Below are positions 268-50,380 of a DNA stretch of 55,134 nucleotides, one piece after another. Source of the DNA: a virus (taxonomy: Duplodnaviria; Heunggongvirae; Uroviricota; Caudoviricetes); the IMG/VR virus record IMGVR_UViG_2547132035_000002; one strand, given 5' to 3'. The notes beneath the pieces are model-generated. The model made no database searches and had not been told where the DNA came from. It worked only from the letters and a program-made list of their open reading frames with translations. How positions within the stretch are numbered: the stretch's first letter is position 1; every line of letters starts with the position of its first letter. The position numbers and the translations under genes are program-made.

Positions 268-526
268 GAAAATATCTTCATTCACAAAAAAAGAACTTCT
301 TAAGGAAGCCAAAAGAAATATGGAGAAACTAGATAGTTTAAAAGTTTCTTACAAGAGAGGCGAAAATTATCAACAGCTAAAAAAGAATGCCCATATCAAA
401 AATCTAGATATTGAGGATATGAATGGAGACCAGCTGTATCTTCTCTGTGTTCAGTTGGATACGCTAATATGCAATAAGAAAATAAGTAGTGATAAAAGAA
501 AGATTTTAGATTTTATGATAAAATAA
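254..526 (+). CDS. hypothetical protein
   Basis: 90-aa ORF overlapping the upstream gene end, co-oriented. Confidence 0.7.
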   Translation: MSYYKKISSFTKKELLKEAKRNMEKLDSLKVSYKRGENYQQLKKNAHIKNLDIEDMNGDQLYLLCVQLDTLICNKKISSDKRKILDFMIK

Positions 527-584
527 AGATGTAACAATAAACGAGAAATAAGAGGTATATCATTATAGAGATATATCTCTTTTT
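516..584 (+). promoter_or_regulatory. cassette head 1 (extended -10, ACGA, hairpin, T-tract)
   Basis: TGaTAAAAT 516-524, GTAA 531, ACGA 541-544, stem aagaggtatatc/gatatatctctt. Confidence 0.8.
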
Positions 585-606
585 ATTTTCAAGTAGAAGA
601 GAAAGG

Positions 607-822
607 ATGATAGAAATGGAATTAACAATTGAATATGATTGGGACTTAGTAGCAAAAATGGCAAAAGAGGAACTGGCGTGTTTAAAGAATTTAGAAGTCT
701 TATATGGGCAGACCTTAACTCTGATGACAAGAGAGATTATTTTAGAAGATGCATTAAAGATGTTTCATAAAGGGTGCAGAGAAAAAGAATTGTATTCTTT
801 AATGCTTGGTGTTCATTCATAA
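607..822 (+). CDS. hypothetical protein
   Basis: ORF with AAAGGA RBS directly after head 1. Confidence 0.7.
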   Translation: MIEMELTIEYDWDLVAKMAKEELACLKNLEVLYGQTLTLMTREIILEDALKMFHKGCREKELYSLMLGVHS

Positions 823-844
823 TAAATTAGGTAGGAGGGATTAC

Positions 845-1054
845 ATGAAAAAAATAAGAGCAGAGGATATAAGGGGGTTGCCATTTGGAACGAAGATTGT
901 TGTCACATACCCTCAAAATAAGCATGGAGGACCAAGCTCATATATTGGTGTAAAGGTTGCTACTCAAATTGTTTATGAGAATGGCTTAGAAGATGATATT
1001 CAAACTATAGAAAATCAACTCGCAAACCATATTTGCTGCGTTTTTATTTTGTAG
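845..1054 (+). CDS. hypothetical protein
   Basis: AGGAGG RBS before ATG 845. Confidence 0.7.
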   Translation: MKKIRAEDIRGLPFGTKIVVTYPQNKHGGPSSYIGVKVATQIVYENGLEDDIQTIENQLANHICCVFIL

Positions 1055-1075
1055 TTTATCAGAGGAGGAAAGAGT

Positions 1076-1423
1076 ATGAGCCTGATTACTGAAAACACAT
1101 TGGTTATTGATTCAAATCATGATGAAAAATTGAAGAACTTATTATTTAAGGAAAGCAAATCTATCTGTTTGAGAAATCTGAAACAAGTCTATAATAAGAA
1201 TAATCTCATCATATATACGTTTAATTCAAATGGATTTCCACTGAAATTAACTGATTATATTGATTTTTTCATTATTGAAAATGTTTCTTCAGAGGGAAGA
1301 ATGACAATGAAAGGAAATCATCAAGAATCACATTTTAAAGCTGTAACATTGCTAAAGAAAATGATTCCAGCAAAAGACTATAGAGAGGTAAAAGAAAGTA
1401 TAGAGTATACTATCGGATACTAA
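1076..1423 (+). CDS. hypothetical protein
   Basis: GAGGAGG RBS, 115 aa. Confidence 0.75.
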   Translation: MSLITENTLVIDSNHDEKLKNLLFKESKSICLRNLKQVYNKNNLIIYTFNSNGFPLKLTDYIDFFIIENVSSEGRMTMKGNHQESHFKAVTLLKKMIPAKDYREVKESIEYTIGY

Positions 1424-1448
1424 ATATGCTTATAATTAGTGATATTTA

Positions 1449-1507
1449 TGATACAATAGAAGAGTAAAGTTAAACGACTGGATGTGCATAAACGTACATC
1501 CTTTTTT
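1449..1507 (+). promoter_or_regulatory. cassette head 2
   Basis: TGaTACAAT 1449-1457, ACGA 1474-1477, stem ggatgtgc/gtacatcc, T6, then GTTAC and AAGGAGG. Confidence 0.8.
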
Positions 1508-1530
1508 GTTACAAAGAAAGGAGGAAAGCC

Positions 1531-3214: not shown

Positions 3215-3266
3215 GGACTTTAATGAGAAAAGTGATTGCTATGAAATGTCAATTAAATATTTTTAT

Positions 3267-3314
3267 ACGAAAACAGTAATTTTACATTTGCGTGATGTGG
3301 TGGTTACTGTTTTT
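3267..3314 (+). terminator. ACGA-tagged hairpin with no downstream gene (empty or degenerate head)
   Basis: TTATACGA then stem aaaacagtaa/ttactgtttt, T-tract, GTTTTAC; no RBS/ORF before the next head. Confidence 0.65.
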
Positions 3315-3392
3315 GTTTTACATAAACATATACTGAGTGTATTAAAAACTTATTCTTTGCAATTCTAACCATCACTTTTACTACAAGAAATA

Positions 3393-3463
3393 TGCTATAC
3401 TAGAGTTGTAATATATACGAAGTAAGAGACTTTTTCTAGCAGGAATGAGTCTTTTTTATTACA
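3393..3463 (+). promoter_or_regulatory. cassette head 3
   Basis: TGcTATACT, TGTAATATATACGA 3407-3420, stem agact/agtct, T-tract, ATTACA, GGAGG. Confidence 0.75.
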
Positions 3464-4163: not shown

Positions 4164-4219
4164 TGATATAATTAATAAAACATACGAAAGTCTATTTTTA
4201 TATAGACTTTTTTGTATGT
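4164..4219 (+). promoter_or_regulatory. cassette head 4 (short variant)
   Basis: TGaTATAAT, ACATACGA 4180-4187, stem aaagtcta/tagacttt, TTGTATGT 4212-4219. Confidence 0.75.
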
Positions 4220-4253: not shown

Positions 4254-5012
4254 ATGAATAAAGAATTTAGTTATTTTTATGGACTTGTTCTCACAGATGG
4301 AACAATAACAACATCAACACGCAATAGGGGTAAAATTCAGATAGAACTTTCGATTAGAGATAGAAATATTTTAGATAAATTACATATAATATTTCCAGAA
4401 AGCAAAATAAGTATTAGACAACGGAGTACAAACTTTTCTCAAAACCATGAAAGTTGTATATTTTCTTTGTTTTACAAAAAGTATAGAGATTATTTTTTTA
4501 AGCAAGGTTATCCCAAATGCCAAAAAGCAATAAATGCAAGACCACCTAACTGCGAGTATTCTAAATGTGATTTTTGGAGAGGAGTTATTGATGGTGATGG
4601 AAGTATAGGTCAAATAAAAAATGGTGACCCATATATATCATTAATAACAAAAAGTGAAGATTTAGCTAATTCATATTTAAGATTGCTGGAAGAAGAGTTT
4701 GGTATAATAAAAATATGTAATAAAAATAAGAGAGATGACTGTTACAATATAACTGTTAAAAATGAAGATGCAATTACGTTGGGAAATTTTCTATATGGTG
4801 ATAGTCATCTATATTTAGATAGAAAATATCAGAAATATCAAGAGAATTTATCTTGGAAACGCACAAAAAATAAAATTACTCGCAAATATTGGAGCAAAGA
4901 GGACGATAATTTTATCTTATCAAATTCAATTGACAATAGTATGATGAAACTAAATAGGAGTAGGTCATCAATTGCTTGTAGAAAGAACAGATTAATTAAA
5001 TTCAATAAATAA
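4254..5012 (+). CDS. LAGLIDADG homing endonuclease, free-standing
   Basis: Two motifs, SYFYGLVLTDGTI and DFWRGVIDGDGSI. Confidence 0.9.
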   Translation: MNKEFSYFYGLVLTDGTITTSTRNRGKIQIELSIRDRNILDKLHIIFPESKISIRQRSTNFSQNHESCIFSLFYKKYRDYFFKQGYPKCQKAINARPPNCEYSKCDFWRGVIDGDGSIGQIKNGDPYISLITKSEDLANSYLRLLEEEFGIIKICNKNKRDDCYNITVKNEDAITLGNFLYGDSHLYLDRKYQKYQENLSWKRTKNKITRKYWSKEDDNFILSNSIDNSMMKLNRSRSSIACRKNRLIKFNK

Positions 5013-5014: not shown

Positions 5015-5078
5015 TGATAAAATAAAGATGTAATTTATACGAGTGAAGACATATCTCAAACAGATATGTCTTTTTTTT
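5015..5078 (+). promoter_or_regulatory. cassette head 5
   Basis: TGaTAAAAT, TGTAATTTATACGA, stem aagacatatct/agatatgtctt, T8. Confidence 0.85.
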
Positions 5079-5106
5079 GCTTACAAAAAGAGGAGGAGTG
5101 AAAGGA

Positions 5107-5625: not shown

Positions 5626-5632
5626 TCTGATT

Positions 5633-5663
5633 ACGAACGAAGACTCATAATGAGTCTTTTTTT
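5633..5663 (+). terminator. promoterless ACGA-tagged terminator
   Basis: ACGAACGA then aagactca/tgagtctt and T-tract, 7 nt after the stop codon. Confidence 0.75.
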
Positions 5664-5733
5664 ATTACACTTAGGATATTGATAAAAAAAGCGCTTTCAT
5701 GTAAGATTATATTAAGGTAATAAGTTTGAAAGG

Positions 5734-7627: not shown

Positions 7628-7692
7628 TGATATAATATAAATGTATATTAACCGAAGAAGAGACTATTTTCTAAAGAGAAAATAGTTTTTTT
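7628..7692 (+). promoter_or_regulatory. cassette head 6 (CCGA variant)
   Basis: TGaTATAAT, TGTATATTAACCGA, stem actattttct/agaaaatagt, T7, GTT. Confidence 0.75.
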
Positions 7693-7726
7693 GTTGAGGA
7701 GAAAAATAAAACAGAAAGGAAATTTG

Positions 7727-12196: not shown

Positions 12197-12605
12197 AAAC
12201 AATCTTTTTTACATTTGTAGTTTACTCGAATCCATATCTAGAAAAACTGGTCTCAAGAAAAAGGAAATCATTGATAAAATTGGCTTAAAGCAACTTAAAC
12301 ATCTGTATAATTACGCTGATGTCAATCATTGCTTGCCTATTTTACAGGTAACTGAAGAAGTTATAGAAAGTAATCATCTTCCTGTAAAAGAAATTGGGAC
12401 TTCTCAAACCGTATCCGTGTGGGATAATGGGAAGGTTTATCAGAGACTGATTATTGATATTTCTGATGATTCCAACTGGTTTGATAAGCTAATAGAAGTC
12501 TATCATTCCTGGATTTGTGACTATCTTGATAATACAGAGCTGCCTATATACTGGCAGCCAAGAAGTTATATTAGGGAATGTTATTTAGAAAAGAAAATTT
12601 TATAG
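12189..12605 (+). CDS. conserved partner of DUF3990 (possible antitoxin)
   Basis: Overlapping start; LFYICSLLESISRKT...ADVNHC pattern recalled from genes downstream of DUF3990. Confidence 0.6.
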   Translation: MNRNNLFYICSLLESISRKTGLKKKEIIDKIGLKQLKHLYNYADVNHCLPILQVTEEVIESNHLPVKEIGTSQTVSVWDNGKVYQRLIIDISDDSNWFDKLIEVYHSWICDYLDNTELPIYWQPRSYIRECYLEKKIL

Positions 12606-12606
12606 A

Positions 12607-12643
12607 ACGATTAAAGACATGTCTTAAATGATATGTCTTTTTT
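12607..12643 (+). terminator. promoterless ACGA-tagged terminator
   Basis: ACGA right after the stop, stem aaagacatgtc/gatatgtcttt, T-tract. Confidence 0.75.
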
Positions 12644-12685
12644 AGGAATATGAATGATAGAAGGAGTTCTAAATACCTAAATCTA

Positions 12686-12754
12686 TGGTAAAATAGAAAT
12701 GTAAATATATACGAGCAATGAGAGACTACATGGAAATGTGGTCTTTTTTGTTGC
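12686..12754 (+). promoter_or_regulatory. cassette head 8
   Basis: TGgTAAAAT, TGTAAATATATACGA, stem agactacat/atgtggtct, T6, GTTGCA, AAGGAGG. Confidence 0.85.
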
Positions 12755-13642: not shown

Positions 13643-13712
13643 TGCTACAATATAAGTGTAATATTATAACGATAAGAAGACTATTTCCAAAAGGAAGTAG
13701 TTTTTTGTTGTA
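13643..13712 (+). promoter_or_regulatory. cassette head 9
   Basis: TGcTACAAT, TATAACGA 13665-13672, stem actatttcc/ggaagtagt, TTGTTGTA 13705-13712. Confidence 0.85.
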
Positions 13713-13728: not shown

Positions 13729-13953
13729 ATGAAATATTATGTGATAAAGACTTCAAATAGAGGAGAATCAGAAAAAAGTAAGCCATATTCAACAATGAAT
13801 GAAGCAGAACGATATGTTAAAAAGCAGCTTCATAATAAAAGACTAAAATCTTGGGGGCAGTGTACTATCAAGGGAACCACTCTTTTATATGATGATGGAC
13901 TTACGATTCACTACTCTATTTTTGAAGAACATGATTATGATACACTTTCATAA
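13729..13953 (+). CDS. hypothetical protein
   Basis: AAGGAGG RBS, 74 aa. Confidence 0.7.
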   Translation: MKYYVIKTSNRGESEKSKPYSTMNEAERYVKKQLHNKRLKSWGQCTIKGTTLLYDDGLTIHYSIFEEHDYDTLS

Positions 13954-14032
13954 TTTGACAATTGAAATATCTGACTATTTTATGTATGATGAAGTTAACA
14001 GACAAAGAATATTTCCAAATAAGGAGAATTTT

Positions 14033-14929
14033 ATGAGAAAGGTAATAAAAAAAGTAACGTTGTTAGTTGTTATTTGTTTCATAGCAACTTCACTATTTGG
14101 CTGCGAAAAACAGATGGGAAAACAGGAATCATTAGCAACAGGCAATATTCAAATTTCCTATATTGATGTGGGGCAGGCGGATGCAACACTTATTCAAGGC
14201 AATGACTTTAATATTCTCATTGATGCTGGGAATAAGGCAGATAGTCAGCTTATGATTGATTTTCTACAAAAGAAAAATGTAAATAAAATAGATATCGCTG
14301 TTGGGACACATGCCCATGAAGACCATGTTGGAGGATTTCCAGAGATATTAAAAGCTTTTGAATGTGATACTTTTTATATAAGCAATACAACTTCCTCTTC
14401 GAAGATATATGAAAGCTTATTGGATGTCTTAGATGATAGGAATATTAGTGTAAGGATTCCTGATGTAGGTGAAGAATTAACATTGGGAGATATTAATATC
14501 AAGTTTTATGGTCCTTTGAAAAAGTATAAGGATTTAAATGATTCTTCAATCATTTTAAAACTTACTCATGGAAATAATTCATATCTTTTTACTGGGGATG
14601 CTGAGTCTGGAGTTGAAAAGGAGTTAATTAAGAAGTGGGGAAACCAACTGAAGTCAACAGTCTATCAGGCAGGACATCATGGGTCATCAACAAGTAACTC
14701 TTCCCAATTTCTAAAGAAAATCTCTCCACAGACAGTGATTATTTCAAGCAATAAGGAGGATGCTCCACGTTATGGACACCCACATATAGAGACTTTGGAT
14801 TTACTTAAATCATTGAATATCCAGTTATATCGAACAGATAAGCAGGGTACAGTTATTTTAACTGATGATGGAAATCATTATACTATTCAAACTGAAAAAG
14901 AATATTCAGGGAATTTATATAAGAAGTAG
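14033..14929 (+). CDS. ComEC/Rec2-like MBL-fold hydrolase, lipoprotein
   Basis: Lipobox SLFGC; IDVGQAD, THAHEDHVGG, LFTGDAE, GHHGS, RTD..G motifs. Confidence 0.9.
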   Translation: MRKVIKKVTLLVVICFIATSLFGCEKQMGKQESLATGNIQISYIDVGQADATLIQGNDFNILIDAGNKADSQLMIDFLQKKNVNKIDIAVGTHAHEDHVGGFPEILKAFECDTFYISNTTSSSKIYESLLDVLDDRNISVRIPDVGEELTLGDINIKFYGPLKKYKDLNDSSIILKLTHGNNSYLFTGDAESGVEKELIKKWGNQLKSTVYQAGHHGSSTSNSSQFLKKISPQTVIISSNKEDAPRYGHPHIETLDLLKSLNIQLYRTDKQGTVILTDDGNHYTIQTEKEYSGNLYKK

Positions 14930-14941
14930 AAGGAGGATATT

Positions 14942-15271
14942 ATGAGCAAAGAAAAGATGTATGAAGAGAATCCTGATATAGCATGGCCATTAAGGGAATT
15001 CCAGAATTGTCAGAGAAATTTAGAGGATTTCAAGGTTCGTGAACATCCACAAAAATATATTGTTGAAGCTATTGAAGATGGCTATTTAAAATGTGAGGAT
15101 GAACATGGAGAATTTGAATATTATAAGCAGTCATTTATGCCAGATGTTCAAGAAAATGATGTCATTCTTATCTATCAAGGACGCTACACAAAACTTCAAG
15201 ATGAAACTGTAGAAAGAAAAAAAAGAATAGATGGAAAACTGGAAAGGTTATTAAATAAGAACAAGAAATAG
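14942..15271 (+). CDS. DUF3006-like protein
   Basis: YIVEAIEDGY.KCE...PDVQENDVI...DETVERKKRI..KLERL; usual neighbour of ComEC-like MBL genes. Confidence 0.6.
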   Translation: MSKEKMYEENPDIAWPLREFQNCQRNLEDFKVREHPQKYIVEAIEDGYLKCEDEHGEFEYYKQSFMPDVQENDVILIYQGRYTKLQDETVERKKRIDGKLERLLNKNKK

Positions 15272-15310: not shown

Positions 15311-15367
15311 TGATAAAATAAATATATATGAAACGAAATGAAGGCTAGCTGTTGCTAGGCTTTTTTT
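15311..15367 (+). promoter_or_regulatory. cassette head 10
   Basis: TGaTAAAAT, AAACGA, stem gctagc/gctagg, T7. Confidence 0.65.
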
Positions 15368-15385
15368 CTTTATGGAGAATAGAAT

Positions 15386-16473: not shown

Positions 16474-16545
16474 TGATATAATATAAATGTAAATATATAC
16501 GAAGAAAAAAACTGTATTTCATTCAGAAGTACAGTTTTTTTTGTT
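16474..16545 (+). promoter_or_regulatory. cassette head 11
   Basis: TGaTATAAT, TGTAAATATATACGA, stem aaactgtatttc/gaagtacagttt, T8, GTT. Confidence 0.85.
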
Positions 16546-16560
16546 GAAAGGAGACTAAAA

Positions 16561-19436: not shown

Positions 19437-19577
19437 GAGATAGATGATGAATACTCTTAGTTTTCATGAAGAGATAAAGAGAGTATGTTGATAACAACAA
19501 ATGATATTTATGACAAAGGAAGAATGCACACTTATATTTTTGCTTTATGCGAGTCTTTTATGCATAATGGAAAAATA

Positions 19578-19644
19578 TGTTACAATAAAACTATGAAATT
19601 ATACGAGTGAAGAAGACTATCTATTGGTCTTCTTTTTTGTTGTG
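19578..19644 (+). promoter_or_regulatory. cassette head 12
   Basis: TGtTACAAT, TTATACGA, stem aagaagacta/tggtcttctt, T-tract, GTTGTG, AAGGAGG. Confidence 0.8.
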
Positions 19645-19658
19645 AAGGAGGAAATAAA

Positions 19659-20129
19659 ATGAATGTTCAATGTGACAGATTTTTTGGATGGATGATAGAT
19701 GTTCCTATAGGATTGTATAATCAGAATATCAGAGAGTATTATAAAAAATATTGTAATTTAACTTCATTAAGTGAATTCTATGTCTGGTGCAAGGATAGTT
19801 CTGCAAAAGTACTGTTAGAGAGTGGATTCATTGGCAGTGATTATCTTTATGATTATGATAAAGATGGTGATAATCAGATTACCTTGCTGATTGATAGCAA
19901 TAATGCGTATATTAAACTGATTTATATAGTGGAGTTAACAAGAAATTATGAGGATTTATTTGTAGGTGATAATGATGATAATAAGATTCTTAATCAATAC
20001 CTGAAACAAATTCCTGTTCCTGAAGTTGTCTGTAATCAAATAGAGAGAATTTATCAGGAGTTGTTTAAGACTGATAATATATATCCAATACATTTGCAGG
20101 AATTCTATCATTGGTACAACAAGGGTTAA
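19659..20129 (+). CDS. hypothetical protein
   Basis: AAGGAGG RBS, 156 aa. Confidence 0.8.
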   Translation: MNVQCDRFFGWMIDVPIGLYNQNIREYYKKYCNLTSLSEFYVWCKDSSAKVLLESGFIGSDYLYDYDKDGDNQITLLIDSNNAYIKLIYIVELTRNYEDLFVGDNDDNKILNQYLKQIPVPEVVCNQIERIYQELFKTDNIYPIHLQEFYHWYNKG

Positions 20130-23602: not shown

Positions 23603-23604
23603 AT

Positions 23605-31141: not shown

Positions 31142-31212
31142 TGGTATAATTGAAATGTAATATTATACGAGAAGAAGGAATCTGCAATTTTGTAGATTCT
31201 TTTTTATTTAAC
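31142..31212 (+). promoter_or_regulatory. cassette head 18, divergent from the integrase
   Basis: TGgTATAAT, TGTAATATTATACGA, stem aaggaatctgcaa/ttgtagattcttt. Confidence 0.85.
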
Positions 31213-34282: not shown

Positions 34283-34349
34283 TGATATACTATATATGTC
34301 AGTTAAAACGAGAACGATGTATCTTCGAGATGCCTCGTTTTTTTGTACA
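34283..34349 (+). promoter_or_regulatory. cassette head 19
   Basis: TGaTATACT, TTAAAACGA, stem aacga..atct/agat..tcgtt, T7, GTACA, AAGGAGG. Confidence 0.75.
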
Positions 34350-34763: not shown

Positions 34764-34830
34764 TGATAAAATAGAGATGTAAACATAAACGAGTAAGTCT
34801 ATTCTTTTGAATAGACCTTTTTTGTTTAAC
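34764..34830 (+). promoter_or_regulatory. cassette head 20
   Basis: TGaTAAAAT, TGTAAACATAAACGA, stem gtctattc/gaatagac, TTGTTTAAC. Confidence 0.85.
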
Positions 34831-35232: not shown

Positions 35233-35754
35233 ATGAAAGACATGAAAATGAGAGCATGGATAATTCCTACGCTTACAGACTCATATAGTGATGGGAAAAT
35301 TGTAAAAGTTAACACTATTCATTTGGGAAAAGAAAAAGTTCAGATTGGATATAAAAAAATATATGATGGTGACAAAGTAGGAGGAAATATAAGTATTCCT
35401 TTTAGCCATATAGAATTAATGCAATTCATTGGACTCAAAGATAGGAATAACAAAGATATCTATGAAGGCGATATTGTCAAAAGTTGGTATCCCTATAATG
35501 ATAACTATATAGAAAATACTGATATTGTTGAATGGAATGATGAAGAATGCTCTTTTATGCTTGGAAGTAAGAGACATTTTCATAAGGGATTAATGTTAGA
35601 AGTATTGGGAAATATTTATGAGAATCCAGAATTATTATTGATAGGAGAGGATGCAGGAAGTAAAGAGGTTAAAGCAAGAGAACTCGTGAAAAAAGGCTGT
35701 CAGATTCACATTGTGGATAACAAAGAGCAAATTCATAAACTCTTAGAATTATAA
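35233..35754 (+). CDS. YopX family protein with BRCT-like tail
   Basis: K.RAW, LMQFIGLKDRNNKDIYEGDIV, EVLGNIYENPELL; then IGEDAGSKEVKAREL. Confidence 0.85.
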   Translation: MKDMKMRAWIIPTLTDSYSDGKIVKVNTIHLGKEKVQIGYKKIYDGDKVGGNISIPFSHIELMQFIGLKDRNNKDIYEGDIVKSWYPYNDNYIENTDIVEWNDEECSFMLGSKRHFHKGLMLEVLGNIYENPELLLIGEDAGSKEVKARELVKKGCQIHIVDNKEQIHKLLEL

Positions 35755-35782
35755 ACGAAAGAGGACAAGAGCCTCTTTTTTT
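35755..35782 (+). terminator. promoterless ACGA-tagged terminator
   Basis: TAAACGA overlapping the stop codon, aaagagg/cctcttt, T7. Confidence 0.75.
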
Positions 35783-35807
35783 GCTATCAGACAACAAGTA
35801 AGCTCAC

Positions 35808-36188: not shown

Positions 36189-36339
36189 ATTATAGTCCTT
36201 TCATAATTTCTACATTGGTATTCGATGATGAATCCAATTGAGATAATTCTCATTTTAATCGTATATATACTCTTTAATTATACCACTAATCGCTAATTTC
36301 TTTTGTTAGTATACTTATAGCAAATAAAAAAGTGCTATA

Positions 36340-37443: not shown

Positions 37444-37519
37444 TGGTAAAATATATATGTAAGTATATACGAGACCTACAAAAGACAAAGTTATTGATTT
37501 GTCTTTTTTTGTGTCTATA
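37444..37519 (+). promoter_or_regulatory. cassette head 21
   Basis: TGgTAAAAT, TGTAAGTATATACGA, stem aaaagacaaa/tttgtctttt, TTGTGT, AAGGAGG. Confidence 0.8.
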
Positions 37520-37532: not shown

Positions 37533-37757
37533 ATGAGTTCTGATGGAAACACATTAGAAAATAAAAAACCGAATCAATTAAGACAGAGTTGTTTAACATG
37601 CAATTATTATAAGAAGAAAATGTGCATCTGCTTGAAACCAAAAGTTAAGAATAAGCCTTTTGGATTTCCATTTGCATACAAGCCTAATTCCATTCAATGT
37701 CAATCATGGGTTAGGGAAAATGTTGAGAAGTGGGCAACGTGGGAACATATGAATTAG
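37533..37757 (+). CDS. small Cys-rich protein
   Basis: SCLTCNYY...CIC...CQSW; RBS after head 21. Confidence 0.7.
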   Translation: MSSDGNTLENKKPNQLRQSCLTCNYYKKKMCICLKPKVKNKPFGFPFAYKPNSIQCQSWVRENVEKWATWEHMN

Positions 37758-39845: not shown

Positions 39846-40163
39846 ATGGAGTATAAAATAATTTCATCACAAGGTTATTTCAATTATTCTTCGTATATGA
39901 TGACTTTCTTCATTCAGGTAGGTCATAATATCTATGAATTTTATGAAGCTGAATTATTTCCTGATGAAATGGAAAAAGAATTAACAATTGCCAAAGCTGT
40001 GCCAAAGGGAATGGAAGTCAGTGAGACTCTTTGTGATACAAAAGCTTTTGAAATGATGTATGGAATTATGATTGCAGATGATTTAACGTTTGTAGATAAT
40101 GAAAATGTTCAAATGTATTTAAAACAGAGGTCATTATCAGATGAGTTTATGGAGGAAGAATAA
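39846..40163 (+). CDS. hypothetical protein
   Basis: AAAGGAG RBS, 105 aa. Confidence 0.75.
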   Translation: MEYKIISSQGYFNYSSYMMTFFIQVGHNIYEFYEAELFPDEMEKELTIAKAVPKGMEVSETLCDTKAFEMMYGIMIADDLTFVDNENVQMYLKQRSLSDEFMEEE

Positions 40164-40603
40164 TGAAAGAGAATAATGTAAAGATAATTGATAGTTTTCA
40201 TGGGGAATATGCATTCCTGAGCAATTATTACGATTCACCAATATTTTATGATGGCATACTCTATCCTACTGTTGAGCATGCTTTTCAGGCAGCTAAAACC
40301 ACAGTATTTATTCAGCGTATCATAATAGCAAACAAAAAAACGCCTGGCCAAGCAAAATGTGCAGGCAGAAAGGTTACGCTTAGAGATAACTGGGATGATA
40401 TTAAGTTATATATTATGAAGGAGTTAATTATTCTAAAGTTTACAAACCCAAAACTAAAGTCAGCACTTTTAAATACCAAAGATGCAGAGCTTATAGAGAG
40501 AAATACATGGAATGATACTTATTGGGGTATCTGTAATGGTATTGGAGAGAATCACTTAGGAAAGATTTTAATGGAAGTGAGAGAGATGTTAAGAGGTGAT
40601 TAA
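40163..40603 (+). CDS. NADAR (YbiA-like) family protein
   Basis: FLSNYY, YPTVEHAFQAAK, KF....LK..LL.T, NDTYWG, GENHLGKILMEVRE. Confidence 0.92.
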   Translation: MKENNVKIIDSFHGEYAFLSNYYDSPIFYDGILYPTVEHAFQAAKTTVFIQRIIIANKKTPGQAKCAGRKVTLRDNWDDIKLYIMKELIILKFTNPKLKSALLNTKDAELIERNTWNDTYWGICNGIGENHLGKILMEVREMLRGD

Positions 40604-40721
40604 TATTCTATATGAGAAGCATTAGCTGATAAAGGAACCCTCTACACATACATACAATAATATTTGGTGAATTGGACAAAAGGTGGTAGAATAAGATAGA
40701 TAGAGAAAGGAGTTGATTTTG

Positions 40722-41555
40722 ATGGAAAAATATAATGAATTCAAGTATAAAGTCATATCAGAAACCAAGGATGGAAAAACAAAACAACTATATTGGAATA
40801 TTGCTTTTGGACTCCAAGACGTAGATAATATCAAGCCTTCAGAATATATGTTGCAACTGGCAAAGGAAAATGTTGAAGGCAAGAAAACCTATACAGAAGT
40901 TTATAAACAGATTGATTCTTATTATAAGGAATCAACTCATATAAACTCTGATGAAAGGGAAGCAGATATTGTATCTGCTAGGATTGTTCAAATGTTGAGC
41001 AGTCCAACATTTAGATTTGATTACAATACTTTAAAACTCTATCATAAGCATTTATTCGATGGAGTGGATATTTTAGTTTCTCAGAAATATATTGGAAACT
41101 TCAGAGATTACAATATAACAAAGAGTGAGCCAATATTAGATGGAGATACTGTACTCTATTCAGATTTTTCAATGATTGAGGATACATTAAGATATGATTT
41201 TGAAGAAGAAAAGAATCAGGATTATACAGAAATGTCAAAAGAGGATATCTTAAAAAGATTAGCAACTTTCACTTCTCGAATTTGGCAAGTTCATCCCTTT
41301 GGAGAAGGGAATACAAGAACAACTGCATTGTTTATTCAGAAATATATCACATATCTAGGATTAAAGGATATGAACAATGAATTATTTAAGGATAATTCGA
41401 AGTATTTTAGAAATGCTCTTGTTCGTGCAAACTATATCAATATTCCTAAGAAAATTAATGAGAATGATGAGTATCTTATTAAATTCTTCTCAAATCTTCT
41501 CTATAAAACTGATTACCAGTTAGATAATGCGGACCTTGATATAAAAGAAAAGTAA
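40722..41555 (+). CDS. fic: Fic family protein with N-terminal VbhA-like segment
   Basis: HPFGEGNTRT Fic motif; GNFRDYNITKSEPIL; N-terminal AFGLQDVDNIKPSEY. Confidence 0.88.
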   Translation: MEKYNEFKYKVISETKDGKTKQLYWNIAFGLQDVDNIKPSEYMLQLAKENVEGKKTYTEVYKQIDSYYKESTHINSDEREADIVSARIVQMLSSPTFRFDYNTLKLYHKHLFDGVDILVSQKYIGNFRDYNITKSEPILDGDTVLYSDFSMIEDTLRYDFEEEKNQDYTEMSKEDILKRLATFTSRIWQVHPFGEGNTRTTALFIQKYITYLGLKDMNNELFKDNSKYFRNALVRANYINIPKKINENDEYLIKFFSNLLYKTDYQLDNADLDIKEK

Positions 41556-41619
41556 AGAGAAACAACAGAGATTGCAGCCTTGCAATCTTTTTTGCGTAAT
41601 GCAGAGGAAAGGATACAAT

Positions 41620-41913
41620 ATGTTAACAATTAAAGATTTATTTGAAAAATATGGAGATGTTCCATTAAATGAAGACGTAATGAAATTATTTGGAATCAAT
41701 GAACCAAAAGAGGTAGATTGTATGCTAAGGTTAAAGGATGTACAGAAAATACTTCGCATAAAAACAGCTTCTCAAATTATTAAAAGATTAAAATATAAAT
41801 ATAACTTAAAGTATAAAGAAGCTATTATTCCTGCAACAGTTCTAGCAAAGGAATATGGTTTAGAAACAACAGCTATGCTTCAGTATCTAAAGGAAGAAGA
41901 AAGTATAACTTGA
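41620..41913 (+). CDS. small putative DNA-binding protein
   Basis: AAAGGA RBS; MLRLKDVQKILRIKTASQI resembles an HTH. Confidence 0.55.
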   Translation: MLTIKDLFEKYGDVPLNEDVMKLFGINEPKEVDCMLRLKDVQKILRIKTASQIIKRLKYKYNLKYKEAIIPATVLAKEYGLETTAMLQYLKEEESIT

Positions 41914-41997
41914 TAGAGTAAACCAAGAGTGGGTAGCAGCTTATACTAAAAAATGTTAAAATATTCCTATAAATAAAATGAGAAAGGATAATTAACA

Positions 41998-44028
41998 ATG
42001 GATAATCATAAGCAATATTTATCAGATACCGAAATCATAGAAGTTATAAAATCCTACATTGCTGAGAAATTATATAATTATGCAGTTATGATTGATGGAG
42101 AGTGGGGTAGTGGGAAAACTTATTTTGTGAAGGAAATCTTGATTCCAAAATTAAAAGATTGGGAAAAAGAAAAAAGTAATAATCAAGACGATTATAAACC
42201 CAAAAAAATCATTTATATCTCTTTATATGGAGTGAAAAGGGTAGAAGATATAAGCAAATCCATTTATATGGAGAATTATTTAGACAGTGATAAAAAGAAA
42301 AAAGGGTATTCTTTTGGCTCATCAGCAGTGTCATTAGGGTTTGATATATTAAAAAATAAAGGTATTGATTTAGATAGGGAGGCTATTAAAGACCTGCTTA
42401 GTCAATTTATGTCATTAGAAAGCAGCATTCTTATTTTTGACGACTTGGAGAGATGCAATATACCAGTCAATGAAGTTTTAGGGTATATTAATGGATTTGT
42501 AGAGCATCAAGCTATGAAAGTTATTATTGTTGCGAATCAGAAAGAGTTATTGTTAGGTTTTGATGATAATAATATTGAATTGAAATATATGGTGGTATTA
42601 AATAATAATTTGCAGATTTCTAGTGATGCAGAAAATTCCGATAAAGAATCATTACCAGGTTTTATACAAAAATCTAATGATAATTCTACTCAAAACAATT
42701 GTATATTTAATGAATCTGAGTTAAAGGAACGAGCAGAGAAACTATTTGAACATAAAACAGACTATGAAAGAATGAGAGAGAAATTAATTGGTATATCTAT
42801 CTATTATCAACCTGATTTATATAAAACATTTAAAAATATAATTGAAAATTCTAACATTGATAATGAATTAAAGAAAATTATTAAAGAAAAAACACCTGAT
42901 TATATAGAAATAATTAACCTATTGAGACATTATAATATGAGAACATTTCAGTTTTATCTTTCTAAGATAAACTTCTTATATTCAGAAATAAAAAATTTAG
43001 ATAAAAAGTCAGAGGGGTTTTTAGATTATATGGTTGGATATTGCTTTGAAATTTGTTGTAGATTTAAAAGTGGAGAGATAGATTATAAGTGGGGAAAAGG
43101 ACTGATTAGTTATGAGCATGAACAGGTAACTATTAATTCAACATATCAAAAATTTTCATTCAGAATAAAGTTTGTTGATGATTATGTTATTTATTCTCAT
43201 TATAATCAATCAGTAATTTCAAATATCATAAAAGAGTATAATAGGAATTATGGTAAAAATGTGGCAGAAAGTAGTCAGTTACTGGTTGATATGGATTATG
43301 GATGGTTCTGTTATACCCAAAATAAAGTAGAAGATTCTTTAAATAGAATAAATCAATATCTTCAAGAGGATTTATATAACAAGGATGACTATCATAAAAT
43401 AATACATTTATTTTTAAAAACAGATAATATTGGTATTGACCCAAATTTTTTGGAAACTATGAAAAAACATATGTTAACTAATATAAAAAAATCAAAAAAT
43501 TATTATCGCTTTGATGAAGCTTATGCGTCAATAATCGATAACAAAAATATTAAGATGAGATTTAAAGATATAATTAAAACTTTGCAGAACACGATGGACG
43601 AAACAATCAATAATAATAAAGAAAATGATATACATTACATTATTTCTCATAATGAGGATTGGGCATATAAGATATATAAATTATCTCAAGATAAAAACAG
43701 TGTTTACTATGCACCTTATAGTGTTATTAATATTTTTGAATATGTAGATATTCACTTTTTAGTATCTAAAATTATAGTGTCAACATCCAAAAACTTATTT
43801 GATTTAAGAAGATTTTTTAGTGAATGGAAAGAGGTATATCATGAGTATAATCATGTCTGTCTACTACTTAAATTATATGATATTCTTAGTAGAATTGATA
43901 TTGATAAATTACCGGATGAGTTAAGACCAGATGATTTAATTATTAAAATGCAACTTAACTATCTCATAAATGATTTAAACCATTATGCTGGTATACCTTT
44001 TGAAAAACTAGAATCATTCCAAGAATAA
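41998..44028 (+). CDS. KAP family P-loop NTPase
   Basis: IDGEWGSGKTYF Walker A, ILIFDDLER Walker B, YERMREKLIG. Confidence 0.88.
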   Translation: MDNHKQYLSDTEIIEVIKSYIAEKLYNYAVMIDGEWGSGKTYFVKEILIPKLKDWEKEKSNNQDDYKPKKIIYISLYGVKRVEDISKSIYMENYLDSDKKKKGYSFGSSAVSLGFDILKNKGIDLDREAIKDLLSQFMSLESSILIFDDLERCNIPVNEVLGYINGFVEHQAMKVIIVANQKELLLGFDDNNIELKYMVVLNNNLQISSDAENSDKESLPGFIQKSNDNSTQNNCIFNESELKERAEKLFEHKTDYERMREKLIGISIYYQPDLYKTFKNIIENSNIDNELKKIIKEKTPDYIEIINLLRHYNMRTFQFYLSKINFLYSEIKNLDKKSEGFLDYMVGYCFEICCRFKSGEIDYKWGKGLISYEHEQVTINSTYQKFSFRIKFVDDYVIYSHYNQSVISNIIKEYNRNYGKNVAESSQLLVDMDYGWFCYTQNKVEDSLNRINQYLQEDLYNKDDYHKIIHLFLKTDNIGIDPNFLETMKKHMLTNIKKSKNYYRFDEAYASIIDNKNIKMRFKDIIKTLQNTMDETINNNKENDIHYIISHNEDWAYKIYKLSQDKNSVYYAPYSVINIFEYVDIHFLVSKIIVSTSKNLFDLRRFFSEWKEVYHEYNHVCLLLKLYDILSRIDIDKLPDELRPDDLIIKMQLNYLINDLNHYAGIPFEKLESFQE

Positions 44029-47471: not shown

Positions 47472-47626
47472 TCATGAAATAGCCTTGCTATTATAATCAT
47501 TTCTATATGCATGATGAAGAAGGAATGGTCATATATAATGCTTTAGTGAATACAAAATACTATGAAGAGGCTCTTAAAATTCCAGGATTTGAAGATTTTC
47601 CCCAAGGAATGAAAAATAGAGAATAG

Positions 47627-48493
47627 GTGCGAATTATGAAAAAATATACAGCAGTCGGTGCGATAGAAACACAAAACAAAATAATTGAAAATATGATGAA
47701 ACCGTATCAGTGTATGTTAAACAACTATGTTAATTCGTTTGCTGATGATATTCGTATAGGTACTGCAAACTTATTTAGTTCTTCTATTTCACAAGTAACT
47801 CAAAGTGCTTTTCAGCTAATGGAAACGCAGTCTGTAAGAGAAAGAATACTGCAGACAACTCATGACTTTCTCATAACAGGAATTTCAAGTTTAATTCCTC
47901 AATTAACTTCTATATCATCACAACTAGAAAATAATACGATGAGTGGGCAAATAGAGCAGTTAATAAATATAGTGAATTCATTATCTTTAAATGCTGAATT
48001 GAAAGAACTTTATAATCAAGTCTCATTTTCTGATATTCAGGAATTGATTGAAGAAGAATATTTATCTGAGGAATTTGTACTGAATCAGGAAAAGATTAAT
48101 AGATTATCGGATGATAATAAAAAGAAAATCACTCATAAGCTTCACTCATTATGGGTATTTGTTACTGTACTTCAATGCATTTTTGGTTTTCTTGATTCAG
48201 ATACAATGAATTATCTTACAAAAGAGGTTCCTATTATCAATCAGCTTTATGGTATCATTCATAATGATAATTCAAATATAACAGCAAATGGCTACATAAC
48301 AAAAGATACAGAGGTTTATTCTTATTCCTCAAATAATGCAGATATATGTGGTTATATTAAATATGGGTTACCTTTTGAGGTGATTGAATACCATAGCGGG
48401 TGGTTAAAAATAAGATACAAGAATACTCTAGACGAAATGAAAGAAGGATGGATAATAGAAGATAAGGCCGTTTGGAGTTTTATCAATGAATAG
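47627..48493 (+). CDS. protein with C-terminal SH3-like domain
   Basis: GYITKDTEVY...GYIKYG.PFEVIEYHSGWLKIRY...EGWI. Confidence 0.65.
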   Translation: MRIMKKYTAVGAIETQNKIIENMMKPYQCMLNNYVNSFADDIRIGTANLFSSSISQVTQSAFQLMETQSVRERILQTTHDFLITGISSLIPQLTSISSQLENNTMSGQIEQLINIVNSLSLNAELKELYNQVSFSDIQELIEEEYLSEEFVLNQEKINRLSDDNKKKITHKLHSLWVFVTVLQCIFGFLDSDTMNYLTKEVPIINQLYGIIHNDNSNITANGYITKDTEVYSYSSNNADICGYIKYGLPFEVIEYHSGWLKIRYKNTLDEMKEGWIIEDKAVWSFINE

Positions 48494-48607
48494 TTTTATT
48501 TAACTTTTTTTTGGTGGATGCTTAAGTATTTTTTGTCGAAAGATAATTTTCAATTGATTATTTTGTAATAAACTCTTATAATAAGAGTAAAGGGGGCGTG
48601 ATATTGG

Positions 48608-49291
48608 ATGAAAAACCCTGAGGATATCATAAATAAAATACAGCAGGCCAAAATAGATACAAGATATGTTTTAGATGGTGAAGTTCCTGTAAGAGGGGTA
48701 AAAAGAGTTCTGGGGGTATGGCTAATAAGTTATATTATAGCAAGTCTTATTATTTATTTTTCAACTCAGTATTTTATGTCACTTTACATAACAGATGGTT
48801 TTGATGGATTTGAAATAACTCGACTGATAACATTGGCTTTATTCACAGTTGTTATTGCAATTTATTATATATGCTTACTAAGAACAAGTATGACAATGAA
48901 GGAAAAGGATTTCTTAAAAGTATTTTCTATTTTTATAGTTCTTTTCTCATTATTAAGAATGCTGTTTCCTCTATCATATTATATGAATTTTACTGTTCTT
49001 TTACAGCTATACAATACTTTCCCATTTGATATTGTTATAAATATGATTGCACTTATTTTTCTATTTAATTATCTTAAGGATAAGACTGCTTTTATAAGTA
49101 TAGGGATGAATATTATTTTTGTTGCACTTATGACATATGTTTTTAGCATAATAATGAACAGTTCTGAATTATCAGGTACATTATTATCTTTAAATGATAT
49201 GTTAGTAGTACTAAGAGATAATGGGATTATTATAATTGTTTCTTTATTTACTATTATTTTATCAATGAAACATAGAAAGGTGGAGATATAA
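48608..49291 (+). CDS. multi-pass membrane protein
   Basis: About six hydrophobic helices. Confidence 0.8.
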   Translation: MKNPEDIINKIQQAKIDTRYVLDGEVPVRGVKRVLGVWLISYIIASLIIYFSTQYFMSLYITDGFDGFEITRLITLALFTVVIAIYYICLLRTSMTMKEKDFLKVFSIFIVLFSLLRMLFPLSYYMNFTVLLQLYNTFPFDIVINMIALIFLFNYLKDKTAFISIGMNIIFVALMTYVFSIIMNSSELSGTLLSLNDMLVVLRDNGIIIIVSLFTIILSMKHRKVEI

Positions 49292-49692
49292 TGGTTGAAA
49301 AAAATATTGCAAGTGTCCCTGATGTTTTTAACTCTGCTATACGTATTCAAATGCTAGCTAGTTTATCGGTCTCACCAATGAGTTATGCTAATCTTAAGAA
49401 GGTCTGTCAGTGTTCTGATGGGACTATGAGTCATAATACAAAGAAATTAAAAGAAGAAGGATACATTATTGATGTGAAATTTCATGTTAGTAAAGAAAAT
49501 AGAGATGCAGCTAGGATTTTAAGTGGTAGTAAAATAATTCCTAGAACTTTCTATGAAATCACAGATTTAGGGTTGCAAGAGTATAAAAATTTTATTAATT
49601 TGATACTTAAGGAATATAACAAGCAACAGATTACAGAAATGCAGGAAAAGGGAGAAAAGAATTATGAAAAAGATTTGCGTATTGCTGACTAG
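49291..49692 (+). CDS. winged-helix transcriptional regulator (ArsR/HTH_34-like)
   Basis: IRIQMLASL...Y.NLK....SDGTMSH..KKL.EEGYI...TFYEITDLG. Confidence 0.8.
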   Translation: MVEKNIASVPDVFNSAIRIQMLASLSVSPMSYANLKKVCQCSDGTMSHNTKKLKEEGYIIDVKFHVSKENRDAARILSGSKIIPRTFYEITDLGLQEYKNFINLILKEYNKQQITEMQEKGEKNYEKDLRIAD

Positions 49693-50251
49693 TTTTTTGA
49701 TTGTTTGCTTATTTACATTTAATGTAAAAGCTTTGGAGACTCCAAACTTGAGCAACTATGAAAATGCTTTAGCAGAAATCAATAAAGAATATCATACTCA
49801 TTTTATGATTTTAACGGAAGAACAGTATAAGACTGAGAATTACCAGTCTATATATAAAAAAACATATGATGAATATATTCAAAATATCTTAGATACTGAT
49901 GTTGAAATCTTTAAGAGTGAATTTATTAAAGCTATTTCTTATAATGACAATGCCGAAGTACAAATCAACACAAATGCAAGGTCAACTTTTGGAACAAAAT
50001 CTGTTAATTTCTATGAAAATAAAAATAGAATGACACTTTCATATAAATACAACGGAAGAACCTTTGATACAAGCTACAAGCCATCTGCTACTGTGCAGCG
50101 ATTAAATTCCAGTGTCTTCTTTCTTATGAGAAGTTATACAGGTTCATTTAAGAACTCAAACAGAACATATAGTGTTATAGCAAGTGGAGAAATTGTGACA
50201 GGATTTGGTGTTCAAAAAGGGCATAAATTTACAGTGAATTTTAATTTATAG
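49664..50251 (+). CDS. secreted protein of unknown function
   Basis: Signal peptide MKKICVLLTSFLIVCLFTFNVKA. Confidence 0.75.
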   Translation: MKKICVLLTSFLIVCLFTFNVKALETPNLSNYENALAEINKEYHTHFMILTEEQYKTENYQSIYKKTYDEYIQNILDTDVEIFKSEFIKAISYNDNAEVQINTNARSTFGTKSVNFYENKNRMTLSYKYNGRTFDTSYKPSATVQRLNSSVFFLMRSYTGSFKNSNRTYSVIASGEIVTGFGVQKGHKFTVNFNL

Positions 50252-50281
50252 AAGACTGAAAATTTGTTTCAGTCTTTTTTT
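50252..50281 (+). terminator. intrinsic terminator
   Basis: aagactgaaa/tttcagtctt plus T-tract. Confidence 0.8.
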
Positions 50282-50312
50282 CGTCAATGATAAGCACATA
50301 TATATAAATATA

Positions 50313-50380
50313 TGATAAAATAGATATGTAATTATATACGAGGCAGGGCTATCTTTATGAGGATGTAGCCCTTTTGTTAT
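50313..50380 (+). promoter_or_regulatory. cassette head 22
   Basis: TGaTAAAAT, TGTAATTATATACGA, stem agggcta/tagccct, TTTTGTTAT. Confidence 0.8.

Follow-up and report, generated by a model that had tools for sequence, protein, structure and literature searches.

Several described systems resemble, each in part, the repeats reported here, and a start unit repeated along a plasmid is a design already known in outline. EGeRS2, a repeated and strong TGnTATAAT sigma-A promoter of the Reg576 regulon on the Gram-positive conjugative plasmid p576 (pLS20 family), lies before several small operons whose establishment genes vary, among them ArdC and unknowns (PMC6294495, PMC8708921), and at one p576 promoter stem-loops in the leader raise expression (PMC6294495). 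EGeRS1 of pLS20 is repeated directly upstream of the RBS in five establishment operons and blocks read-through from upstream (PMC8708921), and the CUP repeats of the IncN plasmids pKM101/R46, which are bound by ArdK, are linked to promoters and place leading-region genes under one plasmid regulator (Delver and Belogurov 1997, cited in PMC6289460). In the lambdoid PR'-qut-tR' arrangement the promoter is strong and constitutive and an intrinsic terminator lies close behind it, so that the RNA stays short unless a promoter-proximal signal, early in the transcribed region, allows the polymerase to be modified (Q). Firmicute conjugative plasmids also carry many intrinsic terminators in one-directional arrays, 23 of them in the pLS20 conjugation operon, which are overridden by the plasmid's conAn system (PMC8191782). 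Finally, at RNase Y sites such as that of cggR-gapA a G stands a few nucleotides ahead of a hairpin, within an AU-rich leader, and the hairpin ends up heading the downstream mRNA (PMC11321564).

The DNA analysed here, a stretch of 55,134 nt that we call the window, is part of a large gut-bacterial conjugative plasmid of more than 139 kb. It contains 22 repeated heads, all on the plus strand, and at least 22 small gene groups are thus headed. The typical head consists in this order of a -35-less TRTGnTAnAAT promoter, GTAA, a TAWACGA box, a variable hairpin, a T4-8 tract and a Shine-Dalgarno (SD) sequence, so that the unit from TG to T-tract is followed by an RBS and 1-7 cargo genes. The genes all point the same way; their products are small proteins of unknown kind, toxin-antitoxin pairs, a methyltransferase, an MBL nuclease-like protein, NADAR, Fic and a primase. 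Beyond the heads listed by an earlier, sequence-only reading, the window holds one minus-strand head that has no hairpin and six promoterless units of ACGA, hairpin and T-tract.

516 to 590, plus strand: head 1, with promoter, GTAA, TAAACGA box, hairpin and T5
1449 to 1512, plus strand: head 2
3393 to 3462, plus strand: head 3; a separate ACGA terminator (3264-3320) lies before it
4164 to 4218, plus strand: head 4, a short variant without GTAA, ACGA 11 nt past the -10
5015 to 5083, plus strand: head 5
7628 to 7697, plus strand: head 6, a GTAT/CCGA variant found also in L028, L152 and L153
9540 to 9606, plus strand: head 7
12686 to 12754, plus strand: head 8; a separate ACGA terminator (12604-12648) lies before it
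13643 to 13711, plus strand: head 9
15311 to 15372, plus strand: head 10, ACGA 13 nt past the -10
16474 to 16547, plus strand: head 11, the closest to consensus
19578 to 19643, plus strand: head 12, without GTAA
20177 to 20243, plus strand: head 13
24815 to 24883, plus strand: head 14, no start codon within range 3' of the RBS
27135 to 27200, plus strand: head 15, tract of only T4
27952 to 28019, plus strand: head 16, near-identical to head 17
29351 to 29418, plus strand: head 17, near-identical to head 16
31142 to 31210, plus strand: head 18, divergent from a recombinase gene, no co-directional unit upstream
34283 to 34349, plus strand: head 19, a GTCA variant with a 6-codon ORF behind it
34764 to 34826, plus strand: head 20
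37444 to 37515, plus strand: head 21, with the conserved primase operon behind it and NlpC/P60 in divergent orientation
50313 to 50382, plus strand: head 22; a separate terminator (T-tract at 50275) lies before it
36189 to 36287, minus strand: hairpin-less head (at 36285; promoter, GTAT, TATACGA, RBS) of a DUF4258 gene
3264 to 3320, plus strand: promoterless TATACGA, hairpin, T-tract at 3310
5630 to 5668, plus strand: promoterless, two ACGA, hairpin, T7 (tract at 5657)
12604 to 12648, plus strand: promoterless ACGA, hairpin, T6 (tract at 12638)
23547 to 23607, plus strand: promoterless TATACGA, hairpin, T7 (tract at 23596), then an ordinary TGTGATATACT promoter
35752 to 35787, plus strand: promoterless TAAACGA, hairpin, T7 (tract at 35776), directly 3' of a stop codon
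50685 to 50722, plus strand: promoterless TATACGA, hairpin, T-tract at 50712, at a unit end

The hairpin-less head and its DUF4258 gene recur in the same arrangement in the related loci L028, L152 and L153.

The sequence-only reading had described the heads as promoter, early tag, terminator-like hairpin and RBS, an anatomy which the sequence supports and which is conserved in related plasmids. TGnTAnnnT, claimed for every copy, was found on inspection at 22/22 positions, and GTAA, said usually to follow after about 6 nt, lies exactly 6 nt past the -10 in 17 heads, with a G at the same place in 19. The ACGA claimed at 15-17 nt past the -10 in 20 copies is there in 19; head 6 has CCGA (at 15 nt), and the distance is 11 nt in head 4 and 13 nt in head 10. 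The box occupies about +9 to +15 of the predicted transcript at a variable 5-7 nt from GTAA. A logo built from 48 heads of seven loci is conserved in TRTG, the -10, G-T-A-A at +1 to +4 and T-A-W-A-C-G-A, and contains no -35 element. The selection pattern forced the invariant columns TG, TA and final T and, in part, the G 7 nt past the -10 (46/48), but not the A at hexamer position 4 (48/48). T is found at -17 in 44/48 heads and A or G at -16 in all 48. By its TG, TR and hexamer the head promoter classes as the sigma-A extended -10 type of Gram-positive bacteria (TRTGnTATAAT), a type that starts transcription at a purine 6-8 nt past the -10. The strict pattern TATGNTANAAT-N6-GTAA-N5-7-ACGA has 14 matches in the window, all on the plus strand, as against 0.00 expected from 100 shuffles, and TAWACGA has 29 as against 6.5 expected. 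The promoter and GTAA part occurs only 2-5 times per genome in five whole Firmicute genomes (17 in 18.3 Mb), and its density in the window is more than 100-fold higher.

In their repetition the heads match EGeRS2, with 22 copies in the window and 3-8 per 18-21 kb locus of related plasmids as against four copies of EGeRS2. EGeRS2 however has a -35 and dual TTATCCC heptamers, which are bound by an RHH repressor and lie upstream of or within the promoter, whereas the heads lack a -35, have their conserved box in the predicted transcribed leader and carry a predicted terminator between start site and RBS. TTATCCC is not enriched in the window (6 matches, 8.2 expected), and none of the matches is at a head. 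EGeRS1, a GC-rich element of 420-750 bp with multiple hairpins, differs also in that no sigma-A promoter is detectable in it; CUP is proteobacterial and acts through a 13-nt ArdK DNA site, with no built-in terminator described in the accessible part of PMC6289460. The conAn2 element occurs only once, as a region of about 283 bp where the operon begins; it works with the ConAn1 protein and is not a 7-nt box at each promoter. RNase Y sites come without an invariant box, T-tract or linked promoter (PMC11321564). The lambdoid system, in turn, is present in one copy and relies on a DNA element to which Q binds, together with a sigma-dependent pause. A -10-like pause hexamer (A in position 2, T in position 6) can be read by eye at +3 to +8 in about 11 of the 17 GTAA heads; its T column is not conserved in the logo, and the pause element does not appear to be consistently present. 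A Pfam scan of the approximately 90 ORFs in the 55-kb window of the >139 kb plasmid (most at E<=0.01, 32 at E<=0.001) found no Q-family antiterminator of the kind that serves lambda Q-type late control, nor any other known antiterminator family, NusG-like and sigma proteins included. One weak NGN match was rejected.

The hairpins of the heads resemble terminators. A hairpin with T4-8 is present in 22/22 heads, with stems of 6-11 bp and core dG values of -4.4 to -12.1 kcal/mol (median -9.4); a discriminant score is above 0 in 16 of them, and in energy these hairpins are at least as strong as the window's stand-alone terminators. All 22 heads thus carry a predicted intrinsic terminator, a stable hairpin directly followed by a T run. 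The proposal of the sequence-only reading that the promoters fire into their own terminators is strengthened by five heads (31142, 37444, 3393, 12686 and 50313), which receive no unterminated co-directional transcription from upstream and have kept hairpin and T-tract nevertheless, so that the predicted terminator would have to act on the head's own transcript.

The ACGA box, by contrast, was not upheld as a part bound only to -10 spacing. It accompanies the six promoterless terminators, in which TAWACGA is intact and the -10 block scores like background, and in relatives it is found in hairpin-less promoters. The relatives are RepA_N/ParAB/ArdC/DnaE gut plasmids. Those with a 55% identical primase have the same heads with unrelated hairpins, and L028, L152 and L153 keep promoter, box, T-tract and SD but not the hairpin sequence, which differs even at orthologous positions such as the head before the primase operon. 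More distant plasmids (primase 42-48% identical) have kept promoter and box and mostly lack the hairpin; in L154, L155 and L029, likewise mostly without hairpin, the box lies 5-9 nt before the SD. Taken together, the promoterless terminators and the hairpin-less heads suggest that the box is a leader signal of its own, which would belong neither to the -10 nor to the terminator. Since the hairpin-less heads imply that it works without a terminator, it would not simply be an antitermination signal for the adjacent hairpin. The box is nevertheless tied to terminators in this plasmid clade: a hairpin with T-tract lies just 3' of 20 of the 21 sense-strand TAWACGA copies, and ACGA is found within 16 nt of 22/35 predicted terminators in the window and of 10/16, 7/16 and 5/10 in close relatives, as compared to 4/228 in unrelated low-GC DNA. 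An Rfam covariance-model search returned no family, be it riboswitch, nut, put or leader, at gathering score and none even at E<=1, in agreement with the earlier reading, which did not recognise the element from known riboswitch, nut or attC families.

Sequence and comparison with relatives support the parts of the head as predicted here, their order, their conservation and their modularity; the start site, termination itself, regulated read-through and a binder of the box are what we infer. We tentatively propose, with a probability of about 0.42, that the heads are a shared promoter-leader-attenuator module of a plasmid accessory or establishment regulon and that the ACGA box is its common control site. 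Host sigma-A RNA polymerase would start from the -35-less, near-consensus extended -10 at the G of GTAA and transcribe a conserved AU-rich leader of 14 nt which ends in TAWACGA and is followed about 5 nt on by the intrinsic terminator. With a terminator so close to the start most transcripts would be expected to end as RNAs of about 35-54 nt, and only the read-through fraction would reach the strong SD and the 1-7 cargo genes. The hairpin would also shield each unit from its upstream neighbour. The box would allow a plasmid- or host-encoded factor to set the fate of all head transcripts together, be it by altered termination, read-through or mRNA processing. With the same start unit before at least 22 gene groups, the accessory genes look like one co-ordinated, throttled set. 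A strong promoter that runs into a terminator is wasteful, which is a point against an attenuator, and the heads may also be unregulated, with constitutive leaky read-through.

But could GTAA...TAWACGA be a DNA site for a plasmid repressor, as are the sites of Reg576 at EGeRS2 and of ArdK at CUP? Heads would then be active when the plasmid enters a new cell and be switched off as repressor accumulates, the hairpins would be ordinary insulators and the promoterless ACGA terminators relics of decayed heads. A conserved box in every promoter of an establishment-type set is the EGeRS2/CUP design (PMC6294495, PMC8708921, PMC6289460), the hairpin-less promoters of the primase-ArdC and DnaE operons of relatives keep the box, and the window encodes three HTH or winged-helix proteins. 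However, the box has only 7 nt and no dyad or direct-repeat partner, its spacing from GTAA varies, and it always lies in the transcribed part, never over a -35 or -10. Neither promoterless terminators with an intact TAWACGA nor a hairpin adjoining nearly every sense-strand box would be expected of a promoter operator, and we regard this explanation as unlikely.

Somewhat less probable still is a role in RNA processing or stability, in which ACG|A with the hairpin about 5 nt on would be cut by RNase Y or by an endoribonuclease of the plasmid. After the cut the downstream mRNA would begin with a hairpin (or, in hairpin-less heads, with a bound ribosome) that blocks RNase J, and the upstream mRNA would lose its protective 3' hairpin. 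The heads do have the G before the cut and the hairpin a few nucleotides 3' of an RNase Y site, which is compatibility in sequence only: the median gap between box and stem is 5 nt, and the G precedes the stem by a median of about 5-6 nt, or the SD by 5-9 nt in hairpin-less heads. The box at promoterless terminators also fits, as does the finding that leader stem-loops about double the apparent strength of the p576 ardC promoter, probably via transcript stabilisation (PMC6294495). Then again, the B. subtilis RNase Y consensus is weak (bioRxiv 10.1101/2023.03.12.532304) whereas the head box is invariant, the obligatory T-tract is left unexplained and a transcript begun only 10 nt upstream would hardly need processing.

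The sequence-only reading had also considered the heads as cassette joints. On a recombination model they would mainly be crossover points, homologous or site-specific, at which cargo is swapped, and their expression signals would be secondary. Only in a weak sense does the term joint hold, in that heads are places where synteny among the relatives breaks: homology blocks between L028, L152 and L153 often start or stop 50-70 nt into a head, a ligase gene is headed in two relatives and without a head in a third, and the two heads around a toxin-antitoxin unit have 49 identical bases in common. The neighbouring tyrosine recombinase, on the other hand, is no integron integrase (38 bits as against the 265-bit cut-off of TIGR02249), the cassettes own their promoters, and hairpin sequences that differ among heads are unfavourable to exchange, so that we consider such joints quite improbable. 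Integron attC sites and gene cassettes were rejected as candidates by the same integrase score; promoterless cassettes with RYYYAAC...GTTRRRY hairpins were rejected too, as every head has a promoter and the AAC of the attC core is spelled by only about half of the boxes in the logo.

We give very little credence to a single-strand signal, by which TCGT beside the hairpin on the transferred strand would be a G4-type priming site for the plasmid primase and provide about 28 starts of complementary-strand synthesis after conjugation. Primases do initiate at short words of an SSB-coated template that adjoin hairpins, their primers often begin pppAC or pppAG, and a Toprim primase is the one protein common to every box-carrying relative; yet promoter and T-tract would be unexplained and hairpin-less heads keep the box. 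Least credible is that the heads serve to make the short terminated RNAs, a family of more than 20 sRNAs which would share a single-stranded 5' seed (GUAAAUAUAUACGA), differ in their terminator hairpins and act in trans on targets of the host or the plasmid: trans-acting small RNAs usually consist of a 5' seed and a terminator, and heads 24815, 34283 and L154:3397 have no usable ORF behind them, but a search of the window found no complementary target, a strong SD and a gene lie behind nearly every head, and in relatives the same leader is a plain mRNA 5' UTR.

All 22 positions listed in the sequence-only reading carry TGnTAnnnT, and downstream of this -10 each of the 22 heads, that is, the repeated gene-start units under study, shows an AT-rich conserved stretch and ACGA, then a hairpin with a T-run and lastly a strong ribosome site of the AGGAGG type. 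The window has a G+C content of 29% and is poor in CG (411 CG per 55 kb); the strict pattern TATGNTANAAT-N6-GTAA-N5-7-ACGA matches it 14 times, on the plus strand every time, as against 0.00 in 100 dinucleotide-preserving shuffles. A position weight matrix run on the window regained 21 of the 22 heads and missed that at 19578, which is without GTAA. It additionally matched a promoter with box on the minus strand (36285, without hairpin) and three ordinary promoters without box (28701, 51170 and 53309). The pattern scan gave 27 single matches in viral contigs, which is background level, and at least 120 in species genomes, where those listed were almost only single matches. No Rfam family matched at gathering score or at E<=1, in keeping with the earlier statement that the head is not recognisable from known riboswitch, nut or attC families.

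In a logo built from 48 heads of the window and six related plasmid loci (gut metagenome contigs) there is no conserved -35, whereas the -10 is near-consensus and the TG is preceded by T and then A or G, TRTG being the '-16 region' of Gram-positive promoters. G-T-A-A begins exactly 7 nt past the -10, its G being the probable transcription start, and T-A-W-A-C-G-A, the box, stands further on. In 43 of the 48 heads ACGA follows the -10 by 15-17 nt, the variation being located between GTAA and the box. The conserved block measures 35 nt, has an invariant CGA and is present in more than 20 copies per plasmid. The spacing would allow ACGA to be the -10 of a two-box alternative sigma promoter, but we rejected this idea since the upstream box matches the sigma-A extended -10 perfectly. 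On comparison by eye, neither a palindromic or Fur/Zur-like operator nor a Spo0A box, cre or LexA box fits.

The hairpins of the 22 heads comprise 6-11 bp with a core dG of -4.4 to -12.1 (median -9.4), are followed by T4-8 tracts and by energy are at least as strong as the window's stand-alone terminators. A terminator discriminant is positive in 16 of the 22, and the predicted RNA, counted from the G of GTAA through the T-run, is 35-54 nt long. In a MAFFT alignment of 32 heads RNAalifold found no consensus pairs, since the variable arms cannot be aligned, and the hairpins were therefore scored individually. But are they more than terminators of the preceding units? The heads at 31142 and 37444 lie back to back with genes on the minus strand, and those at 3393, 12686 and 50313 have a separate terminator less than 100 nt upstream. 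At these heads there is no remaining co-directional transcription to stop, and all five have kept hairpin and T-run. The hairpin therefore belongs to the head's own function, which supports the core claim of the sequence-only reading that the terminator acts on the RNA of the head itself. It would be an attenuation or leader structure and not merely the terminator of the preceding unit, and we infer that both termination and read-through take place at the heads. RNA-type sequencing runs contain only small shares of the words sampled from the window, and contigs of four such runs match it in short pieces. A 151-nt contig from a wastewater metatranscriptome run equals window 19539-19689 with zero differences and extends from 39 nt before the -10 of the head at 19578 across the terminator into the gene; if it is RNA it would represent read-through at this head, though it may also be DNA carry-over.

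The box also accompanies terminators that have no promoter. Six plus-strand terminators in the window carry TAWACGA or ACGA directly before the stem, with -10 block scores of -9 to -19 as compared to a head median of 22, and 20 of the 21 sense-strand copies of TAWACGA in the window adjoin a hairpin with a T-run. ACGA lies at most 16 nt from 22 of the 35 predicted plus-strand terminators of the window and from 10/16, 7/16 and 5/10 in the related loci L028, L152 and L153, respectively, as compared to 4/228 in unrelated low-GC genomic loci that stand in for the host chromosome. The purine-rich stretch after the box has greater complementarity to the T-run than its counterpart in control terminators (6.6 vs 4.6 of 10, p=2e-6), and this pairing lengthens the stem, often to a closing AC:GU pair. 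We discarded an outer stem AC...GU: covariation is not demonstrable because ACGA is invariant and the T-tract almost fixed in length, and hairpin-less heads still carry ACGA. One site on the element has the classical order:

23547-23625, plus strand: box, hairpin and T7, then the TGTGATATACT promoter of the first proteasome-like (Ntn) gene

The element thus has the two layouts side by side.

L028, L152 and L153, in which the primase is 55% identical, contain 5-8 heads apiece per 18-21 kb, with promoter, GTAA, box, T-run and SD as in the window and with unrelated hairpin sequences. The same holds at the orthologous head before the primase operon (window 37444, L028:9065, L152:8909, L153:9048); thus, the structure is kept while its sequence drifts. 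The rare GTAT...CCGA variant of the head at 7628 was found again in all three loci. In L154, L155 and L029, whose primases are 42-48% identical, TGATATACT-N6-GTAAAT-TATACGA is retained before MoxR/vWA, primase-ArdC and DnaE operons, and here the box is mostly followed by the SD directly after 5-9 nt, L154 having heads both with and without a hairpin. The hairpin is therefore an optional module, of which the box is independent. L154 contains, in addition, a head without an ORF, the next head following 200 nt on:

L154:3397-3470, plus strand: head with a hairpin loop, CCTCCTTTC, that is anti-Shine-Dalgarno-like

This head may drive a small RNA, which might base-pair with strong SD sites across the regulon.

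What, then, might the box do? We prefer to regard it as a leader signal that a putative factor would read to set termination or read-through, because at terminators, whether or not they have a promoter, it is 2-11 nt away from the stem. In its full form, a regulon-wide promoter-proximal attenuation to which we give about one chance in four, each of more than 20 consensus promoters on a single plasmid would be controlled by an intrinsic terminator of its own, and a dedicated factor would read the 7 nt of TAWACGA in RNA or in the transcription bubble and thereby switch termination, or translation in the hairpin-less heads, for the entire accessory or establishment set together. That one RNA-binding regulator can control terminators and ribosome sites alike is known from TRAP. 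Such a system would parallel Q/qut, RfaH/ops or TRAP in multi-copy form and yet stand outside those families. Alternatively, the box might be an RNase Y-type cleavage site, a G with a hairpin a few nt downstream being the form of such sites. It might also be the DNA operator of a plasmid repressor, for which the establishment regulons of p576 (Reg576, TTATCCC heptamers) and of IncN plasmids (ArdK at CUP) offer parallels; however, the box is small and asymmetric, its position is transcribed, and it survives at promoterless terminators.

As to the factor that attenuation through the box would require, no member of the Q, NusG-like, sigma or RHH families was found among about 90 ORFs of the window, which is a minor part of the plasmid, and the only DNA-binding candidates are HTH_3 (51234-51557), HTH_17 and HTH_34 (49291-49692) proteins. 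A weak Spt5-NGN match in the 101-aa protein after the head at 1449 (E=0.003, 33 residues) was dismissed, the sequence being acidic and unlike NGN; Atlas look-alikes of this protein are unnamed phage proteins. A trans-acting anti-leader RNA was dropped too, the sole plus-strand match with a TCGT core being the complement of the minus-strand head at 36285. Two small basic proteins are shared with L028, L152 and L153:

22576-22749, plus strand: very lysine-rich 57-aa protein, 61-68% identity in the three loci
37533-37757, plus strand: 74-aa Cys-rich protein (CxxC...CxC...C), 37-51% identity, first gene after the head at 37444 in the conserved primase operon

The former, which is better conserved than the primase, may be a small regulator that binds nucleic acid; the latter fits no Pfam family and is possibly a zinc ribbon.

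Among L028, L152 and L153, homology to one another often begins or ends 50-70 nt inside a head, two of the three have a head at their ligase gene, which in the remaining one is fused to its upstream neighbour, and the window heads at 27952 and 29351 are near-identical around a toxin-antitoxin unit. Thus, the heads mark units of gene turnover, as has been proposed for the CUP repeats. To this extent the earlier suggestion of cassette joints holds, but not in the integron sense: the tyrosine recombinase adjoining the head at 31142 was ruled out as an integron integrase, and the cassettes carry their own promoters.

Megablast of 17.7 kb of the window against phage and plasmid collections gave no match, and the relatives that tblastn with the primase turned up, on Listeria and Bacillus plasmids, were just 28% identical; no relative of the primase was found in viral contigs. 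Relatives of the primase occur on gut-metagenome contigs of up to 240 kb with RepA_N, ParA/ParB, ArdC and DnaE polymerase, and look-ups in sequencing runs led to mouse-gut metagenomes and to an isolate sequenced in 2009-2012. The window encodes a Toprim primase, an NlpC/P60 hydrolase, a tyrosine recombinase, KAP NTPase, Fic and NADAR proteins, a class I methyltransferase, an MBL protein like the ComEC nuclease domain, Phd/ParE and Panacea-type toxin-antitoxin pairs, a LAGLIDADG endonuclease, YopX, RadC and numerous small proteins without family; no tRNA gene was found in it, and no transfer origin or relaxase was seen. From this gene content we infer that it belongs to a large conjugative plasmid of a Firmicute, of which it forms the accessory or establishment section. 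Its cargo includes:

4254-5012, plus strand: free-standing LAGLIDADG homing endonuclease, sole cargo of the head at 4164 (short variant)
13889-15271, plus strand: MBL-fold protein like the ComEC/Rec2 C-terminal nuclease domain (139 bits, below cut-off), phage proteins being alike as well; followed by a DUF3006 gene behind the head at 13643
40163-44028, plus strand: NADAR, Fic and KAP P-loop NTPase genes, a head-free stretch downstream of the primase; Fic is 76% identical to that at the end of L028

The general design, in which a conjugative plasmid has one promoter-bearing element in front of each of many small operons, is already known from EGeRS1 and EGeRS2 of the pLS20 family and from CUP of IncN plasmids, and conAn is a plasmid system that overrides many internal terminators. 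New is the combination of a -35-less consensus promoter, an invariant 7-nt box within the first 15 nt of the transcript and a canonical terminator, the placement of this terminator between start site and ribosome site, and the scale of more than 20 copies, conserved across a family of uncharacterised gut plasmids. To our knowledge large conjugative plasmids of gut Firmicutes have hardly been studied, and the heads, a very clean cis-element kept across plasmids with proteins only 42-55% identical, bear on how such plasmids time or limit anti-defence and other cargo genes. Plasmid establishment is known to be controlled by repressor-operator systems (Reg576, ArdK) and by single-strand promoters; if a new factor for antitermination, termination or RNA processing acted through the box, a further mechanism would be added, and if the heads were only shared promoters with insulating terminators they would still be a compact natural expression cassette for low-GC bacteria.

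Two promoters of the window that are without the box stand out:

28696-28745, plus strand: Phd/ParE promoter made of three tandem TATGATAAA(A)T repeats
53309-53380, plus strand: consensus TATGATATACT promoter without GTAA, hairpin and T7 about 30 nt later

The repeats of the former are probably the operator array of the antitoxin, and the latter resembles a gene for a small RNA of about 55-60 nt or else a different kind of attenuator.
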